Part shown: positions 34,167 through 52,798 of the stretch, in pieces
Numbering within the stretch: position 1 is the first letter of the stretch
Layout: the number at the start of each line of letters is the position of its first letter
From: Candidatus Omnitrophota bacterium
GTDB taxonomy: Bacteria > Omnitrophota > Gorgyraeia > JAHJTE01
Assembly (NCBI GenBank): GCA_018830005.1
Contig: JAHJTE010000001.1
Span: 1,332-65,331, forward strand
DNA: 64,000 bases
Direction of reading: 5' to 3'
Position numbers and translations under genes: made by a program
The notes under the pieces: model-generated
Databases searched by the model: none
Told to the model about the DNA's origin: nothing
Seen by the model: the letters and a program-made list of their open reading frames with translations, nothing else

Positions 34167-37303
<3,137 letters not shown>

Positions 37304-37314
37304 GCGAGGAGTAA

Positions 37315-40300
37315 ATGTATACAAAGGGTGAAAAGGTAGTTCCGGTTTATATTGAAGAGGAAATGAAGGATTCCTACATTTCCTACGCAATGAGCGTGAT
37401 TGTTGGCAGGGCCCTGCCTGATGTGCGCGATGGCCTAAAGCCCGTACATCGACGCATTCTATATACGATGCATGAGCTGAATCTTAGGCACAACCAACCC
37501 TTTAAAAAATCAGCCAGAATCGTTGGGGATTGCTTGGGAAAATATCATCCTCACGGAGATACGGCAGTATATGACGCCCTAGTAAGAATGGTGCAGGATT
37601 TTTCTCTGCGCTATCCTTTGATAGATGGCCAGGGGAATTTTGGTTCGGTTGACGGCGATGCTCCAGCGGCGATGCGATATTGCATTAGTGGTGACACATT
37701 AATTGTCACAGATAAAGGGTTGCAGAGGATAGAGAAGATTCCCCATCATTCAGAAGTTTCTTTTTATGCACTTTCAGCAAATAATAAGATAAATCATGTT
37801 TCAAAATGGTTTGATTCTGGTGAGCATCCAACAATAAGAATACAAACCCACAGAGGTTTTAGCCTATGCGGCAGCTATAATCATCCTATTCTTGTCTGGC
37901 AAAGCAAAGAAAGAAGAGCGTGTTTTAAGTGGAGATTGCTGAAAGAGTTGCAAGAAGGTGACTATGCAGTAATAAGTAGGAGTGATGCGCTCTTTCCTAA
38001 AAAAGAGACATCTTTAAAGCCTTTTTACCCAAAGGTCAACAAAAGATGCAAGATTCATAAGCTTCCACGATTTATGAATAGGGATTTTGCTTTGATTTTG
38101 GGGGCGATAGTTGCTGAGGGTAATATTGGTAAGGAGCATATCGGATTTTGTAATAACGATGAGCTATTTATTGAGCAATTTAAAAGCAGCTTTAAAAGAG
38201 TATTCCCTGATTGTAAGCTTCACGAATTTGTGCGAAAACCACAAGGTTACACCAAAAAACAATACATGTCTTTAGAAATTCACTCTAAGCAAGTAATAGA
38301 ATTTTTGAAAAATCTCGGCCTAACACCAGGTAGAGCTAAAGATAGGAGAGTTCCGGATATCATTTTTCAGTCCAAGAAAGATTCAGTCGCTTCTTTTGTT
38401 CGTGGTTATGCAGAAGGAGATGGTAGCGTTTGCATATCATCTTCTTTGAGCAATCTAGAAGTAACTTTTATTTCCGCTAGCAAAAAACTTATGCAAGAAC
38501 TCCAAATTTTATTATTGAGATTTGGGATCGATTCTTCATATAGGTTGCAGAGGTCACGCAATGTGTTTAAGCTTTTTATTAGAAGCCACGACAACCTCAA
38601 TCTATTTAAAAATAATATAGGTTTTATATCGCGCAGAAAGCGCAAGAAACTACAAGAGATCTCTGGCCGCAATAGCAATAGCTGGGTTATGTCTAAGATG
38701 GACTTTATCCCCTATTTGTCTAATTACATCCGCACAAGCAATAAATACAAGGCCAAGTATAGAGGCCACGGGGAATTTTTGATTAAACACAACATCGATA
38801 GGTATACGAAAATAGAGCGACATTGGAAGAAGCTCAAAGAAGTGCTTGATAAGGAAGATATGCAGCTGTACGCAACATTGAGAGGGAACAAATACATTTT
38901 TGATAAAATTACCTCGGTTAAAGAAAGCGGGGTAAACAGGGTCTATTCAATAAAAGTAGATAGTCCCTGCCACTCATTCGTATCAAATGGATTTATAAGT
39001 CATAATACTGAGGCACGTATGGCTTCCATTTCCTTCGAGATGCTAGCAGACATCGAAAAGGATACAGTAAATTTTGCTCCTAATTTTGATGCTTCTTTGC
39101 AGGAGCCAATATTATTACCTGCAGCTATTCCTAACCTATTAATTAATGGTTCAAGCGGCATAGCCGTAGGCATGGCAACTAACATCCCGCCACATAACTT
39201 AGGTGAAGTTATTGACGGTTTAAGTTATTTAATTGATAAACCCGACTGTGAACTCAAGGCATTGATGAAGATTATTAAAGGGCCAGATTTTCCAACAGGC
39301 GGAATAATCTGCGGTAGGAACAGCATAAAGGACGCCTATTCTAAAGGCAGGGGTAAACTTACGGTCCGCGCCCGAGCTCAGATTGAAAAATCCAAAGGCT
39401 CTAAAGAGGCGATTGTTGTGACTGAGCTTCCTTACCAGGTGAATAAATCCAACCTTATCGCTTCTGTGGCTTCATTGGTAACAGACAAAAAGGTCGAGGG
39501 GATAAGTGATATTCGCGATGAATCTGATAAAGATGGAATGCGCATTGTTATAGATTTAAAACGTGATGCTGAATCTAAGGTCATACTCAATCAATTATTT
39601 AAGCACACAGATTTAGAGACTACTTTCGGCATTATCTTGCTTGCCTTGGTAGACAGCCGACCGCGTATATTAAACCTTAAGAGTATCCTGCATTATTTTA
39701 TTGTTCACAGAAAAGAAATAATTAAAAGACGTACACAATTTGAGCTGGATAAGGCATTAAAGAGAGCGCATATTTTAGAAGGTTTAAAGATTGCCCTGAA
39801 GTTTTTAGACAGGGTTATCAAAACCATAAAGCAATCAAAGAGCGTGCCTGATGCCAAGGCAGCATTAATGAAGAACTTTAAACTATCAGATGTGCAGGCA
39901 CAGGCGATTTTAGAAATGCAATTGCAGCGGCTCACGGCCCTAGAAAGAAGCAAGCTGGAAAATGAATATTTAGAGTTGATTAAGCGCATAGAACTGTTGC
40001 GTTCAATCCTTGCTTCGGAAAAAAAGATAGAGATGATCATTAAAGAAGAGCTGGATGCTTTAAAGAAAAAATATGCGGATGAGCGCCGTACAGATATAGT
40101 GGGTGAAGTTCAGGAACTAGAGATAGAAGATCTGATAGCTGAAGAAGATGTGGTGATCACTATAAGTCATACTGGTTACATCAAGAGATTGCCGGTGTCA
40201 GCCTATCGCAAACACCACCGGGGAGGAAAAGGAGTTACAGGGGCCGAGATGAAGGATGAGGATCTCATAGAGCATCTTTTTATTGCCTCTACGCATGAGT

Positions 40301-41070
40301 ATATTCTATTTTTCACGGATACAGGAAGGGTATTGTGGTTAAGGGTTCATGAGATCCCTCAGGCAGGCCGCGCCTCAAAGGGCAAGGCAATTGTGAATCT
40401 TCTGCAGCTTGGCAGCGGAGAAAATATCAGCGCTTGCATACCAGTGAAAGAGTTTCATGAGGATGCCTTTCTGGTTATGGCTACCAAGAATGGCCTGATT
40501 AAAAAGACAAGACTAGACGCCTTTAGCAACCCACGCAAGGGCGGCATTATTGGTTTGAGTTTGGAAAAAGGCGACAGCTTGATTAGCGTAAAGATGACTG
40601 ATGGTAACAGTGAGATTCTTTTGGCCACGGCTCAAGGTAAGGCTATAAGATTTGTGGAAAAGCAGGTGCGGGAAATGGGAAGGGCTGCCAAAGGAGTAAA
40701 AGGGATTTCGCTTGCCAAAAAGGATTTGGTTATTGCCATGGAGATTCCTGCTAAGGAGTGTACTTTTCTTACGGTGACCGAGCGCGGATTTGCAAAAAGG
40801 ACTCAGGCTTCAGAGTACCGTTTACAATCAAGGGGCGGCAAGGGAATTATTAATATAAGGGTAACAAGTAAAAACGGGCCTGCTGTTAATTTGTTATCAG
40901 TGCGCGATAAAGATGAGATCATGGCAATTACACAGAACGCCATGATTGTGCGCTGTGCAGTAAAGGATATCCGCAGCACCGGACGCTCTGCTCAAGGCGT
41001 GCGTTTAATCAAGTTAGGCGCTAAGGATAAAGTCGCCTGCATGGCACACGTAGTTAAGCAGGAAGAATAA
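37315..41070 (+). CDS. gyrA: DNA gyrase subunit A, interrupted by a 442-aa intein at the catalytic Tyr
   Basis: 1251 aa; exteins ...[10 protein letters not shown] | [13 protein letters not shown]...; intervening block CISGDTLIV...FISHN. Confidence 0.9.
37681..39006 (+). mobile_element. GyrA intein carrying a LAGLIDADG homing-endonuclease domain
   Basis: Same insertion site as the Mxe GyrA intein (RY^CI...HN^TEA). LAGLIDADG motifs [12 protein letters not shown] and [12 protein letters not shown]. Terminal HN, +1 Thr. Confidence 0.85.
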
Positions 41071-49312: not shown

Positions 49313-49765
49313 ATGAAGTTTGTAGTGACAAAGGAATTAGGAAAACTGGCAAAGTGGTTGCGGATTTTTGGGTTTGACACTATTTACTTTAAGGAAGCCA
49401 CTTTTAGTACAGTATTAATTATTGCATTTCAGGAAGACAGGATTATCCTAACCAGAAACACCAAAATCGGCGTACATTCTGGAGTGCGGATTATTACAAT
49501 CAAAAGCAATAATTTGGCTGAGCAGCTTAATCAGGTTTTTAGAGAGCTAAAATCCAAGCCGCAGAAAGAGAAGATGTTTAGCCGTTGTATTCTTTGCAAC
49601 GAAGAATTAAGCCACATTGCTAAAGAAAAAATTAAGAAAAAAGTACCTGAATATGTTTATAAAACGCAAAGCTCATTTGTAGCCTGCCCTGAATGCAAAC
49701 GCGTATATTGGCAAGGAACACATTGGGGTAAAGTAGAGGAAGCACTGCATGCAATTCGTAGCTGA
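49313..49765 (+). CDS. Mut7-C RNase-domain (DUF82) protein with a C-terminal zinc ribbon
   Basis: MKFVVTKELGKLAKWLRIFGFDT is the signature DUF82 N-terminus; the zinc ribbon is CILCN...CPECK. Start taken at the internal Met (49313) preceded by an RBS-like sequence. Confidence 0.6.
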   Translation: MKFVVTKELGKLAKWLRIFGFDTIYFKEATFSTVLIIAFQEDRIILTRNTKIGVHSGVRIITIKSNNLAEQLNQVFRELKSKPQKEKMFSRCILCNEELSHIAKEKIKKKVPEYVYKTQSSFVACPECKRVYWQGTHWGKVEEALHAIRS

Positions 49766-52223
49766 TTTTCACATTCATTCTAAATATTCTCGTGCCACAA
49801 GCCGCGAGATGGATATAGAACATCTTGCTAAATGGGCAAAGATAAAAGGTATCTCTCTTTTAGGCACAGGAGATTTTACGCACCATCTTTGGCTTGAGGA
49901 GCTAAAGGCAAATTTAGAGCCGAAAGACAACGGCCTCTTTGTTTATAACGGGATAAACTTTATCTTGACTGCTGAAATTAGCAGTATCTATTCAAAAAAA
50001 GGACGCACCTATCGTATACACAATTGTTTACTTGCGCCGTCTTTTGAAACAGTGGATAAGATTAATGCCCGACTTTCAGAGATAGGGAATCTCGCCTCTG
50101 ACGGAAGACCGATTTTAGGTTTGGATGCTAAGGAATTAGTAAGAATAGTCTTAGATATTGATCCAAATTGTATGATTATTCCCGCCCATTGTCTTCTACC
50201 AGATAGTCATATTCATACCAAGCTTGGAATTAAAAAAATTAAAGACATTCAAGAAGGAGAATTGGTCTATACGCACAAGTCAAATATTAAAAAAGTTACA
50301 AAGACTTTTAAAAGACAATATAAAGGGGAGATTTATCATATCAAACCATTTTATTTCAGAGAAGGGTTAAAGACAACGCCAGAACACCCATTTTATGTCA
50401 TTAAGACATATAAAAATTGTCCGTCAACTCAGGGATATTGCAAGAAGGATTGTTGTCATATCAAGAAAGGTTGTAAGCGTAGATTTTATGAAGATTATAA
50501 GCCTGGCTGGGTACAAGCAAAAGACATAGAAAATAGTGACGTACTTCTGTTCCCCAGATTTATTAATAATTCGAGAGATATTAATGAGATAAAATTAAGT
50601 GATTATATAGAAGCCGATTTTACATTAAAGAATAATAAAATTGCTCCTAATGGAAGTAGAGTTCATTGGTTGCCAAATAATATTAAAATAGATGAAGATT
50701 TTTGTAGATTGGTAGGTTATTATTTAGCAGAAGGCTATACTAATAATCGCGATCAGATTTCTTTTTGTTTCAAAGATAGCGAGCTAGACTATATTAATGA
50801 TGTTAAATTTTTGGTGAAGAAAATTTTTGATATTAACTTATCTAGCAATCGAATCAGGGAGGGCGTCAACAGCATAGAATTAAATTTTTGTTCAAAGATT
50901 TTACTCAACCTATTTAGCAAGTTTTTTTACGTTAGTAATCCAGCAAAGACTCATAATAAATGCCTACCGGGTTGGATGTTGCAGCTTTCAGCTGTTAAGC
51001 AGATGCAAATTCTAAAAGGTTGGTGGCGTGGCGATACAGGCTATACATCTTCGCAAACGCTTATGAATCAAATGAAGATTATATTGTTAAGATTAGGTAT
51101 TATTCCTTCAATCCGGGTTGATTCTATTCAAGATCATTTTAAACGTGGTAAACACAAGATTGGAGAAAGAGATGTAGTAGCTAAATATGACAACTATTAC
51201 TTTTCTAATTTGTCTTTCTTTGAAGATGAACATAGTTTATTAAATGACCCTAGTTTTGAAAAATTTAGGACAAAATTACAACGTAGACATGGTTGGATGG
51301 ACGACAAATATATTTATATACCGGTTAAGGATATAGAAGTGAGTAATTATAACGGAGAAGTTTACAATCTAGAAGTTGAAGATGATAATTCTTATGTTAG
51401 TGAATTTGCAATTGTCCATAATTGTTGGACCCCCTGGTTCAGTCTTTTTGGTTCAATGTCAGGATTTGATAAAATTGAGTATTGCTTTGAAGAGCAGACT
51501 AAAAACATATTCTGCTTAGAAACCGGCCTTAGTAGCGATCCGGCTATGAACTGGCGATTATCAGCACTGGATAGGTTTTCTTTAATCAGCAACTCTGACA
51601 GTCACTCTCCTTCCCGTATTGGCCGCGAAGCCAATGTCTTTGATTGCGGCTTAGATTACAAGACTATAATGGAGGTTTTAAAGACAAAGGATAAGAAGCG
51701 TTTTCTCTATACTATTGAATTTTTCCCACAAGAAGGGAAATATCATTTTGATGGGCATAGAAATTGTGGCATTTGTTTTAGCCCGCAAGAATCCCGAAAA
51801 CATAAGAACCGTTGTCCAAAATGCGGTCGCGCTTTAACTATAGGGGTTATGAACAGGGTAGAACAGTTGGCAGATAGGCCTGTGGGATTCGTCCCGGAAA
51901 ACAACATCCCATTTAAGAATCTTATCCCTCTGGATGAGATTATCTCTGAGGTGCGAGGTGTAGGCAAGGCCTCCAAGACAGTCACGAATGAGTACAATAC
52001 AATTATACATAAATTCCAGACAGAGTTTGATGTGTTAGTCAAGGCAACCAGGGAAGAGCTGGCAAAAAGTCTTCCTGAGAAAATTGTAGAAGGGATTATG
52101 CGCGTTAGACAAGGCAGGGTCGACATTCTACCTGGACATGACGGCGAATACGGCAAGATTAAGATCTTTGATGAGAATGAAAAAGGTAAACCTACAGGAG
52201 AGGAGCAGCTGAGCCTGTTTTGA
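49749..52223 (+). CDS. Endonuclease Q (EndoQ)-like PHP-domain protein, interrupted by a 411-aa intein
   Basis: Exteins (413 aa): DFHIHSKYSRATS...GTGDFTH...SDGRP...IIPAH | CWTPWFSLFGS...SNSDSHSP...GKYHFDGHRNCGICF...CPKCGRAL...GHDGEYGKIKI. This matches the archaeal EndoQ architecture: PHP fold, zinc finger, and a C-terminal GxYGxI. Confidence 0.7.
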   Translation: MQFVADFHIHSKYSRATSREMDIEHLAKWAKIKGISLLGTGDFTHHLWLEELKANLEPKDNGLFVYNGINFILTAEISSIYSKKGRTYRIHNCLLAPSFETVDKINARLSEIGNLASDGRPILGLDAKELVRIVLDIDPNCMIIPAHCLLPDSHIHTKLGIKKIKDIQEGELVYTHKSNIKKVTKTFKRQYKGEIYHIKPFYFREGLKTTPEHPFYVIKTYKNCPSTQGYCKKDCCHIKKGCKRRFYEDYKPGWVQAKDIENSDVLLFPRFINNSRDINEIKLSDYIEADFTLKNNKIAPNGSRVHWLPNNIKIDEDFCRLVGYYLAEGYTNNRDQISFCFKDSELDYINDVKFLVKKIFDINLSSNRIREGVNSIELNFCSKILLNLFSKFFYVSNPAKTHNKCLPGWMLQLSAVKQMQILKGWWRGDTGYTSSQTLMNQMKIILLRLGIIPSIRVDSIQDHFKRGKHKIGERDVVAKYDNYYFSNLSFFEDEHSLLNDPSFEKFRTKLQRRHGWMDDKYIYIPVKDIEVSNYNGEVYNLEVEDDNSYVSEFAIVHNCWTPWFSLFGSMSGFDKIEYCFEEQTKNIFCLETGLSSDPAMNWRLSALDRFSLISNSDSHSPSRIGREANVFDCGLDYKTIMEVLKTKDKKRFLYTIEFFPQEGKYHFDGHRNCGICFSPQESRKHKNRCPKCGRALTIGVMNRVEQLADRPVGFVPENNIPFKNLIPLDEIISEVRGVGKASKTVTNEYNTIIHKFQTEFDVLVKATREELAKSLPEKIVEGIMRVRQGRVDILPGHDGEYGKIKIFDENEKGKPTGEEQLSLF
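50190..51422 (+). mobile_element. Intein with a LAGLIDADG homing-endonuclease domain inside the EndoQ-like gene
   Basis: CLLPDSHIHT (block A) ... LVGYYLAEGYTNN and LKGWWRGDTGYT (LAGLIDADG blocks) ... FAIVHN, then a +1 Cys. A Cys-rich insert (CPSTQGYCKKDCCHIKKGCKRR) follows block B. Confidence 0.75.
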
Positions 52224-52232
52224 ATTAGATTA

Positions 52233-52304
52233 GCGCCTGTAGCTCAATGGATAGAGCAGTGGCCTCCGGAGCCATGTGTGCAGGTTCGACTCCTGCCAGG
52301 CGCA
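52233..52304 (+). tRNA. tRNA-Arg (anticodon CCG)
   Basis: GCGCCTGTAGCTCAATGGATAGAGCAGTGGCCTCCGGAGCCATGTGTGCAGGTTCGACTCCTGCCAGGCGCA. Confidence 0.85.
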
Positions 52305-52336
52305 TTTCAAGGCAGTTAAATAAAGGAGCATGGGAC

Positions 52337-52798
52337 ATGTTAACTAATTGCAAGGCAATAGTTTCCGTAATTGGTGGCCATAAATGTTCTAAAGAAGTGG
52401 AGGAAATAGCCATAAATTTAGGCAAAAATATAGGTAAAAGTGGTTATATTTTAGTATGTGGAGGCCTAAGTGGAGTAATGGAAGCAGCAGCAAAGGGCGC
52501 CAAACAGACAGGTGCTACCACAGTTGGCATATTACCAGGCAATGATAAATGCGTTGCCAATCCTTATATTGACGTTGCGATTGCTACTGGTTTAGGTATG
52601 GTCAGGAATACCATCGTAGTTTCTGCTGCAGATGCTGTTGTGGCCTTAGCAGGAGAAAAAGGCACTTTATCTGAAATTGCCTTTGCCCTTACATTAGAAA
52701 AACCAGTAATTGACTTAGGGAACTGGGGCCTTCCAGGCATGATTAAGGCTAGCTCACCAGAAGAGGCAATACAGATTATAGAGGGAGTTATCAAATAA
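52337..52798 (+). CDS. TIGR00725/LOG-family Rossmann-fold protein
   Basis: 153 aa from the ATG at 52337 (RBS AAAGGAG upstream); SVIGGHKCS...ILVCGGLSGVMEAAAKGA...GILP pattern. The longer ORF-track start would run through tRNA-Arg. Confidence 0.6.
   Translation: MLTNCKAIVSVIGGHKCSKEVEEIAINLGKNIGKSGYILVCGGLSGVMEAAAKGAKQTGATTVGILPGNDKCVANPYIDVAIATGLGMVRNTIVVSAADAVVALAGEKGTLSEIAFALTLEKPVIDLGNWGLPGMIKASSPEEAIQIIEGVIK

Follow-up and report, generated by a model that had tools for sequence, protein, structure and literature searches.

A Mja hyp1-type intein within the endonuclease Q gene of a Candidatus Omnitrophota bacterium

Introduction

What is an element with every appearance of an intein doing in the middle of the catalytic site of endonuclease Q (EndoQ)? 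The question is raised by a gene of a Candidatus Omnitrophota bacterium, situated at 49749..52223 on the + strand of the 64,000-nucleotide (nt) stretch of contig JAHJTE010000001.1 that we analysed (hereafter the window). According to the open reading frame (ORF) list the gene has an ATG start and comprises 824 codons and a stop codon, encoding in turn an N-extein, an intein and a C-extein. The 824-amino acid (aa) product is deposited at NCBI as 'hypothetical protein [Candidatus Omnitrophota bacterium]'.

Here, we describe the anatomy of the precursor, the identity of the intein allele, its distribution and probable history, and a conserved Cys-rich segment within it. Our conclusion, which we hold with high confidence, is that a resident EndoQ gene of the Omnitrophota has been invaded by a canonical class-1 LAGLIDADG intein that belongs, as a bacterial representative, to the Mja hyp1 family. 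It is the bacterial (Omnitrophota) member that is new; the family of intein alleles and the family of host proteins are both known already. As an intein, the window copy adds little, the allele being widespread in metagenomes, and the value of the analysis lies mainly in correction and annotation: the label 'hypothetical protein' should become 'endonuclease Q, intein-containing'.

The extein as endonuclease Q

Deletion of the segment CLLPDSHIHT…AIVHN (aa 148-558, nt 50190..51422) leaves a 413-aa extein. A previous sequence-only reading of the window had divided the ORF into a 413-aa extein and a 411-aa intein in the same way, and its coordinates are exact to the base; the motifs that it listed (DFHIH, IIPAH, two LAGLIDADG blocks, CGIC…CPKC, GHDGEYGKIKI and a Cys-rich stretch) all lie where it had placed them. 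It had further proposed that the gene belongs to the EndoQ family and that the LAGLIDADG intein follows directly on a metal-ligand histidine of the PHP fold. This is borne out by an alignment of the extein-only sequence with the solved PfuEndoQ (5zb8, 7k30). Residues 5-403 align end to end (E 7.5e-61), and the alignment is unbroken at the junction, where iipah-cwtpwf of the window protein faces igpah-aftpwt of PfuEndoQ. Counted along the 5zb8 alignment, His147 of the window protein corresponds to PfuEndoQ His139.

The two catalytic Zn ions of PfuEndoQ are held by His8, His10, Glu76, His84, His139 and Asp193, the lesion pocket is lined by His139 and Thr142, and the H139A substitution almost abolishes activity (PMC5961232). 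Alignment to PfuEndoQ shows the Zn-ligand residues, the lesion-pocket residues and the C4 zinc finger to be conserved in the window protein. The N-extein (aa 1-147, 49749..50189, on the + strand like all features described below unless stated otherwise) forms the opening portion of the PHP domain and holds the metal ligands H8 and H10 (49770-49778), E76 (49974-49976), H91, which is the equivalent of Pfu H84 (50019-50021), and H147 (50187-50189). The C-extein (aa 559-824, 51423..52220) comprises the remaining PHP domain, including the CWTPWF lesion-pocket strand and ETGLSSDP. The last of the ligands lie in its NSDSHSP motif (51591-51611), whose precursor residues D618/H620 align with Pfu D193/H195. 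Further along, the C4 zinc finger (51765-51824) reads CGIC…CPKC and aligns with Pfu C249/C252/C268/C271, and the motif GHDGEYGKIKI (52134-52166) lies in the C-terminal helical domain; the alignment extends to Pfu residue 390.

At the level of protein families, NCBIfam TIGR00375 matches the extein end to end at 202.3 bits, which is below the equivalog cutoff of 326.6 bits, and a precomputed Pfam match to PF27218, named 'MJ0043_C', is recorded for the window protein. The spliced extein would have the same PHP Zn ligands, lesion-pocket residues, C4 finger and C-terminal helical domain as PfuEndoQ, TkoEndoQ and Bacillus pumilus EndoQ. Unlike the window gene, these three are intein-less, and they have been characterised biochemically, whereas the EndoQ of the Omnitrophota is known from sequence, with activity on dU, dI and apurinic/apyrimidinic (AP) sites predicted.

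Anatomy of the intein

The insert (50190..51422, 411 aa, precursor aa 148-558) consists of a class-1 Hint domain in which a LAGLIDADG homing endonuclease (HEN) is nested, as indicated by Pfam and NCBIfam profiles, by an AlphaFold2 (AF2) model compared using Foldseek, and by homology to the MJ0043 protein considered in the next section. Block A, CLLPDSHIHT (50190..50219), begins with Cys1, the first nucleophile, and block B, TTPEHPF (50373..50393), contains Thr63 and His66 (intein numbering). Blocks F, VYNLEVEDDNSYV, and G, AIVHN, together with the +1 Cys of the C-extein (51423-51425), span 51360..51425. The LAGLIDADG (DOD) domain occupies approximately intein aa 160-345 (50667..51224), with limits drawn from the Pfam LAGLIDADG_3 match, AF2 secondary structure and Foldseek. 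Its first motif, LVGYYLAEGY (precursor aa 321-330, 50709-50738), carries the catalytic Glu181 (intein numbering), and its second, ILKGWWRGDTGY (precursor aa 421-432, 51009-51044), the catalytic Asp282.

We assembled 140 distinct complete inteins from the EndoQ site to assess conservation. Cys1, Thr63, His66, His410 and Asn411 are present in all of them (100%), and the acidic residues of the two LAGLIDADG motifs are almost as constant (Glu181 98%, Asp282 99%); the +1 Cys is likewise found in 100% of the EndoQ-site alleles seen. On the insert itself, Pfam Intein_splicing matches with E 7.7e-13 and LAGLIDADG_3 with E 1.1e-5 (26.1 bits against a cutoff of 22.5). The NCBIfam matches are weak, intein_Nterm (E 2.7e-4, 21.9 bits) falling under its 24.5-bit cutoff and intein_Cterm (E 3e-3, 17.8 bits) lying just over its cutoff of 15.6 bits. 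The AF2 model, based on 46 aligned relatives, has a predicted local distance difference test score (pLDDT) of 92.9 and a predicted template modelling score (pTM) of 0.92, and its best Foldseek matches in the PDB are TliVMA/PhoVMA, PI-TkoII, PI-SceI and PI-PfuI (E 1.6e-19 to 2e-10). Next come free LAGLIDADG enzymes (I-DmoI, I-SceI) and then mini-inteins and Hedgehog Hint domains (gp41-1, Prp8, 1at0). Profiles and predicted fold both support an HEN-bearing intein, and the +1 Cys and two LAGLIDADG blocks that the earlier reading had pointed out are both present.

With the solved HEN-bearing inteins, namely TliVMA/PhoVMA (7qss, 7qsu, 7qst), PI-TkoII (2cw7), PI-SceI (1vde, 1lws) and PI-PfuI (1dq3), the window intein has the two-domain fold in common (template modelling (TM) score 0.5-0.63) at a sequence identity of 11-17%. 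It also shares with them the concept of an accessory Hint/HEN element that aids DNA recognition (PMC8966425). They differ from it in host, residing in V-ATPase, DNA polymerase and ribonucleotide reductase rather than EndoQ, and in being without its Cys-rich insert.

Judged by its residues, the intein has everything that class-1 splicing and DNA cleavage call for. Because the catalytic residues for splicing and for the endonuclease are all intact, we consider it most likely that this class-1 intein is functional and carries a homing endonuclease.

On this basis, the following course of events can be proposed. The 824-aa precursor would be translated with the intein between the Zn ligand His147 and Cys559, with the lesion-pocket Thr three residues further on; since the intein splits the catalytic site at His147, the precursor should be catalytically dead. 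Splicing would begin with an N-S acyl shift by Cys148, after which the N-extein would pass to Cys559. Asn558 would then cyclise with the help of His557 and so release the intein, and a final S-N shift would give a 413-aa EndoQ reading …IIPAH-CWTPWF…. The freed 411-aa intein should in turn act as a site-specific endonuclease on endoQ alleles that lack an intein, cutting them within this highly conserved stretch of coding sequence, and repair from an intein-bearing copy would write the intein into the cut allele.

Identity of the allele

The sequence-only reading was not aware of any EndoQ intein allele. A homologous intein does sit at exactly this site, in M. jannaschii MJ0043 (Q60348, 785 aa), which UniProt describes as 'Uncharacterized protein MJ0043; Contains: Mja hyp1 intein'. 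The junctions, LIGPAH/CVPPDT…GTLHN/CFTPW in MJ0043 and IIPAH/C…VHN/CWTPWF in the window (a slash marks each splice point), define an identical insertion point. In BLASTP, the 392-aa MJ0043 intein aligns with the 411-aa window intein over its full length, including the Cys-rich segment, with 40% identity over 416 columns (E 7e-89).

The allele is also present in other cultured hosts, including Thermococcus barophilus CH5 (of the P0251 cluster), Palaeococcus, Methanocaldococcus vulcanius and M. bathoardescens, and the copy in T. litoralis DSM 5473 is itself deposited as 'Mja hyp1 intein'. The Thermococcus-type EndoQ P0251 was found to carry the intein in an exhaustive search of family representatives. 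Compared with Mja hyp1 and these copies, the window intein has the same host family (PF27218 'MJ0043_C'/TIGR00375, which is EndoQ), the same site between the metal-ligand His of PAH and C(F/W)TPW, the same pairing of a class-1 Hint domain and a two-motif LAGLIDADG endonuclease, and the same Cys-rich insert after block B. It differs from Mja hyp1 in having a bacterial host (Candidatus Omnitrophota) with a bacterial-type EndoQ, whose extein is only ~47-48% identical, and in the +2 residue, which is Trp in the window and Phe in MJ0043.

To follow the allele more widely, we scanned one genome per species, which gave 188 tblastn-confirmed relatives of the intein, and examined the best 80 loci for the junction. 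All but one of these (79/80) have the EndoQ junction with an open frame, so that intein-bearing EndoQ loci are known from at least 79 species-level genomes, belonging to Omnitrophota, many lineages of Patescibacteria (the candidate phyla radiation, CPR), DPANN archaea and Altarchaeum. Among the matches listed, intein relatives at 43-59% identity are all in EndoQ-family proteins, at PAH/C…HN/C[WM]TPWF. The alleles from CPR, DPANN and Omnitrophota have the same site and architecture as the window intein, to which they are 44-59% identical in pairwise global alignments, and none is closer to it than ~60%; by the sequence of its Cys segment and by its position in the tree described below, the window intein falls outside a tight Omnitrophota subgroup (L003/L004/L079/P0124). 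Most of the metagenome-assembled EndoQ alleles bear the name 'hypothetical protein' or 'LAGLIDADG family homing endonuclease'.

Database names and sequences thus identify the 'EndoQ intein' as the long-catalogued hyp1 intein, whose host was renamed once EndoQ had been discovered in 2015. We take the hyp1 allele to have been catalogued since the M. jannaschii genome, and the archaeal Mja hyp1 entry to be itself only a sequence-based prediction. The old 'hyp1' host can now be identified as endonuclease Q, a link that goes unmentioned in the literature that we searched, where no paper connects EndoQ with an intein or with MJ0043; the word 'intein' is absent from the two main EndoQ papers (PMC5961232 among them).

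One observation on the family models belongs here. TIGR00375 also matches the C-terminal third of the window intein, aa 270-410 (E 2.7e-11, profile positions 2-134). This is probably because the seed of the profile holds the intein-bearing MJ0043 misaligned to the N-exteins of the other members. If so, this is a flaw of a curated model that could mislead annotation.

EndoQ in the Omnitrophota

The earlier reading described EndoQ as mainly archaeal and rare in bacteria. That agrees with the published papers of 2015-2018, which place EndoQ in 'few bacterial genera' (PMC5961232 among them), but it does not agree with the databases. A search with the extein returned at least 8000 matches, all with E<=1e-10. 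The 120 best are 411-435 aa long, intein-less and 70-86% identical at 96-100% coverage. Where an organism is given it is Omnitrophota or an unclassified 'bacterium', and the protein names, where present, are 'endonuclease Q family protein', 'DNA helicase UvrD' and 'TIGR00375 family'. From these matches, EndoQ is common in the Omnitrophota, contrary to the published statement, and bacterial EndoQ (in Omnitrophota and CPR) is far commoner than the literature states.

The gene neighbourhood leads us to regard endoQ as a resident gene. In the window the order is pyrC–Mut7-C–endoQ–LOG/TIGR00725-like–fpg, within a pyrimidine-biosynthesis cluster (pyrB, pyrC … pyrK, pyrD, pyrF). The order pyrC–Mut7-C–endoQ–LOG-like recurs in other Omnitrophota, with and without the intein (e.g. 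L004, L079), and this shared synteny is the reason for considering the gene resident. The Mut7-C gene (PF01927, 49271..49765), identified from the ORF list and Pfam, lies immediately upstream and overlaps the start of endoQ by 17 nt.

Most EndoQ-family representatives at 50% identity are ~1000-1250 aa long (P0253-P0385, P0439-P0453), and in those long examples that have Pfam annotation an N-terminal EndoQ module is joined to a UvrD/PcrA-type helicase (PF00580, PF13361, PF13245). Such fusions probably explain why some stand-alone Omnitrophota EndoQs have been misnamed 'DNA helicase UvrD'.

Distribution and history of the intein

The EndoQ most similar to that of the window, at 86% identity and likewise with a pyrC gene upstream, is intein-less and reads PGH/I at the site; the intein-less Omnitrophota site of the P0001 allele is CCCGGGCAT/ATCTGGACGCCTTGG. 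Intein-bearing alleles are nearly all PAH/C, and most intein-less Omnitrophota alleles PGH/I. Across the 120 best intein-less relatives, Ile predominates at the +1 position (104), followed by Ala (7), Val (6) and Cys (3). The three with Cys (e.g. P0012, P0016) read PAH/CWTPWF, which is the sequence of the spliced junction; they may have arisen by the precise loss of an intein, or they may be ready-made homing targets.

Trees of the inteins and exteins were built by neighbour joining (NJ), with no bootstrap support values. The window intein falls among those of other Omnitrophota, together with a single intein from Shapirobacteria. The two trees show broad congruence of clades with some discordance (Spearman 0.45), the discordant placements including an Altarchaeum intein within a Paceibacteria clade and the Shapirobacteria intein beside that of the window. 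Between the window copy and those of other Omnitrophota, inteins are 56-61% identical and exteins 77-78%. These pairwise identities had first suggested an intein phylogeny decoupled from the host, a description that we reduced to 'partly discordant' in view of the broadly congruent trees.

Two other ideas were set aside. A fraction of G and C (GC) of 0.313 in the intein, compared with 0.392 in the N-extein, 0.427 in the C-extein and 0.408 in the whole window, might be read as decisive proof of recent foreign origin, but nearly all allelic inteins, whatever the host, have a higher AT content than the sequence on either side. A viral vector was likewise rejected: the best relatives on viral contigs reach no more than 34% identity, and the EndoQ junction occurs in none of them.

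Because the closest relative is intein-less, 79 of the 80 best loci are occupied at the same site and the trees are partly discordant, the intein behaves as a mobile element. The sequences fit an old element that is gained and lost in cycles and is now and then passed between small-celled lineages that occur together.

Several points weigh against this account of an active, invading intein. The LAGLIDADG_3 match is modest (26 bits), and the endonuclease could be inactive in spite of its intact acidic residues; splicing, cleavage and the binding of metal and DNA are activities that we infer. The low GC of the intein may reflect its amino-acid composition, and an intein tree that broadly follows the host clades suggests long residence over recent invasion. 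We also found no co-conversion tract on aligning the window extein DNA with that of P0001/L083, which at 77% nt identity is the nearest allele without an intein: identity neither dips nor jumps locally at the junction, where only the codons for PGH/I and PAH/C differ. The missing tract is evidence neither for nor against recent homing.

In one alternative, the intein splices but its endonuclease is inactive or it is no longer mobile, so that it persists as an old, vertically inherited passenger late in the homing cycle. The clade-level congruence, the grouping with Omnitrophota inteins at an identity well below that of the exteins, the missing co-conversion signal and the remoteness of the viral relatives all speak in its favour. 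They have to be set against the near-universal retention of both catalytic acidic residues across the alleles and of a full-size endonuclease domain (the median length is 407 aa, and deletions such as that in P0155, of 308 aa, are rare). Omnitrophota loci that share synteny have the intein only in part, a patchiness that implies recent gain or loss, and this and the discordant Altarchaeum and Shapirobacteria placements likewise tell against a passenger. We consider the passenger hypothesis a serious contender, though the less probable one. The same cannot be said of the suggestion that the locus is a chimeric assembly, or a pseudogene broken by an unrelated insertion. The fall in GC from ~0.41 to 0.31 precisely across the insert would suit it, but nearly all allelic inteins of other genomes show that same fall, the reading frame runs without interruption, the edges of the insert are exactly the intein consensus residues and its removal gives perfect colinearity with EndoQ. 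An assembly artefact is excluded because the identical 824-aa protein is encoded on four contigs of independent ENA and NCBI assemblies, including GCA_043815545.1 contig JBDRIX010000008.1. This explanation is effectively refuted and, to our mind, has virtually no chance of being right.

The Cys-rich segment

The extra Cys-rich segment that the sequence-only reading had flagged in the intein is real, and it is conserved across the whole allele family rather than being peculiar to the window copy. Within the Hint domain it follows directly on block B (50418..50474, precursor aa 224-242, CPSTQGYCKKDCCHIKKGC), and it has the pattern C77-x6-C84-x3-C88C89-x5-C95 in intein numbering. Cys77 is kept in 94%, Cys84 in 96% and Cys95 in 96% of the 140 alleles, those of Mja and Thermococcus included, and position 88 is Cys in 59% and His in a further 9%. 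The dominant spacings are C-x6-C-x3-C-x5-12-C and C-x6-C-x9/11-C, and a few alleles, such as P0139, are without the insert. Positions 72, 75, 85 and 96-98 around the cluster are mostly Lys/Arg.

In the AF2 model the segment is an excursion of ~33 residues that contains two short helices and is modelled with somewhat less confidence (pLDDT ~78-83). None of the solved inteins aligns across the insert, and the profile match to PI-PkoII breaks off directly ahead of it, at position 74. Related Cys-rich inserts occur in some cousin inteins of other hosts, for instance in dCMP deaminase and a BadF-type ATPase. The first of the two dominant spacings loosely recalls the Fe-S loop of EndoIII/MutY, C-x6-C-x2-C-x5-C.

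The cluster is most likely a small, metal-stabilised, basic accessory loop by which the Hint domain contacts DNA. It probably helps to bind the target DNA, since its position is analogous to that of the DNA-recognition region of PI-SceI. A tetrahedral metal site is unproven, and that only three of the four cysteines are strongly conserved tells against it. The more specific proposal, that Cys77, Cys84 and Cys95 (with or without Cys88) constitute an undescribed Zn or Fe-S module, acting either as an accessory DNA-recognition element or in coupling splicing to redox or metal status, seems to us unlikely to be correct. Of the two roles the second would be the more interesting, as splicing, and hence the activation of EndoQ, would be tied to redox or metal status.

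In its strongest form, that second role would make the cluster a redox-, zinc- or Fe-S-sensing splicing switch, by which EndoQ is activated post-translationally under certain conditions only. In its favour are the three cysteines, whose conservation between Methanocaldococcus and Omnitrophota nearly equals that of the catalytic residues, the resemblance of the spacing to the EndoIII/MutY loop and the occurrence of the insert in no solved intein, and with the intein in the active site splicing would indeed gate EndoQ activity. On the other hand, the fourth Cys is found in little more than half of the alleles, some alleles dispense with the insert altogether, and the neighbouring residues are strongly basic, as a DNA contact would predict. 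The presence of similar inserts in the inteins of unrelated hosts points to a role intrinsic to the intein (DNA binding or stability) rather than to regulation specific to EndoQ. A sensing role in conditional splicing is thus possible but less likely than a DNA-contact loop, and the switch itself we regard as distinctly improbable. The Cys cluster is strongly conserved and structurally uncharacterised, and the proteins of the cultured Thermococcus or Methanocaldococcus would offer an inexpensive way to examine it.

Other inteins in EndoQ and in the window

EndoQ homologues P0379, P0242, P0252, P0254 and P0369 hold inteins at four further sites, after the metal-ligand His of SD(A/S)H (…DAH/C…THN/SP), within ETGLS/SDP, within the zinc finger (CPV/C…VHN/CGKPL) and ahead of the (E/S)YGKYH motif. 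P0242 holds two, which occupy the SDSH site and the site that is used in the window gene, and the inteins of the SDSH site contain an extra helix-turn-helix (HTH) domain. EndoQ is an intein hot-spot with at least five insertion sites, most of them at or beside conserved functional motifs (metal-ligand His, ETGLSSDP, zinc finger).

The window contains two more inteins, in the gyrase genes, so that three (GyrB, GyrA and EndoQ) are found within one 64-kb stretch of an Omnitrophota genome. The gyrA gene (37315..41070, 1251 aa) has a 442-aa LAGLIDADG intein at 37681..39006 (AAMRY/CISGDT…GFISHN/TEARM), with Pfam matches to Intein_splicing (E 3e-10) and LAGLIDADG_3 (E 8.9e-17) and a GC of 0.369, compared with 0.436 in its extein. 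The gyrB gene (34478..37303, 941 aa) has a 149-aa mini-intein without an endonuclease at 35768..36214 (GDSAGG/CFSGDT…GIFVHN/SAKQGR; Intein_splicing E 2.2e-13).

Downstream of endoQ, a tRNA-Arg (CCG) gene (52233..52304) begins 10 nt past the stop codon. Two ORFs that overlap it, at 52225..52425 on the - strand and 52247..52798 on the + strand (in its N-terminal part), are probably spurious there.

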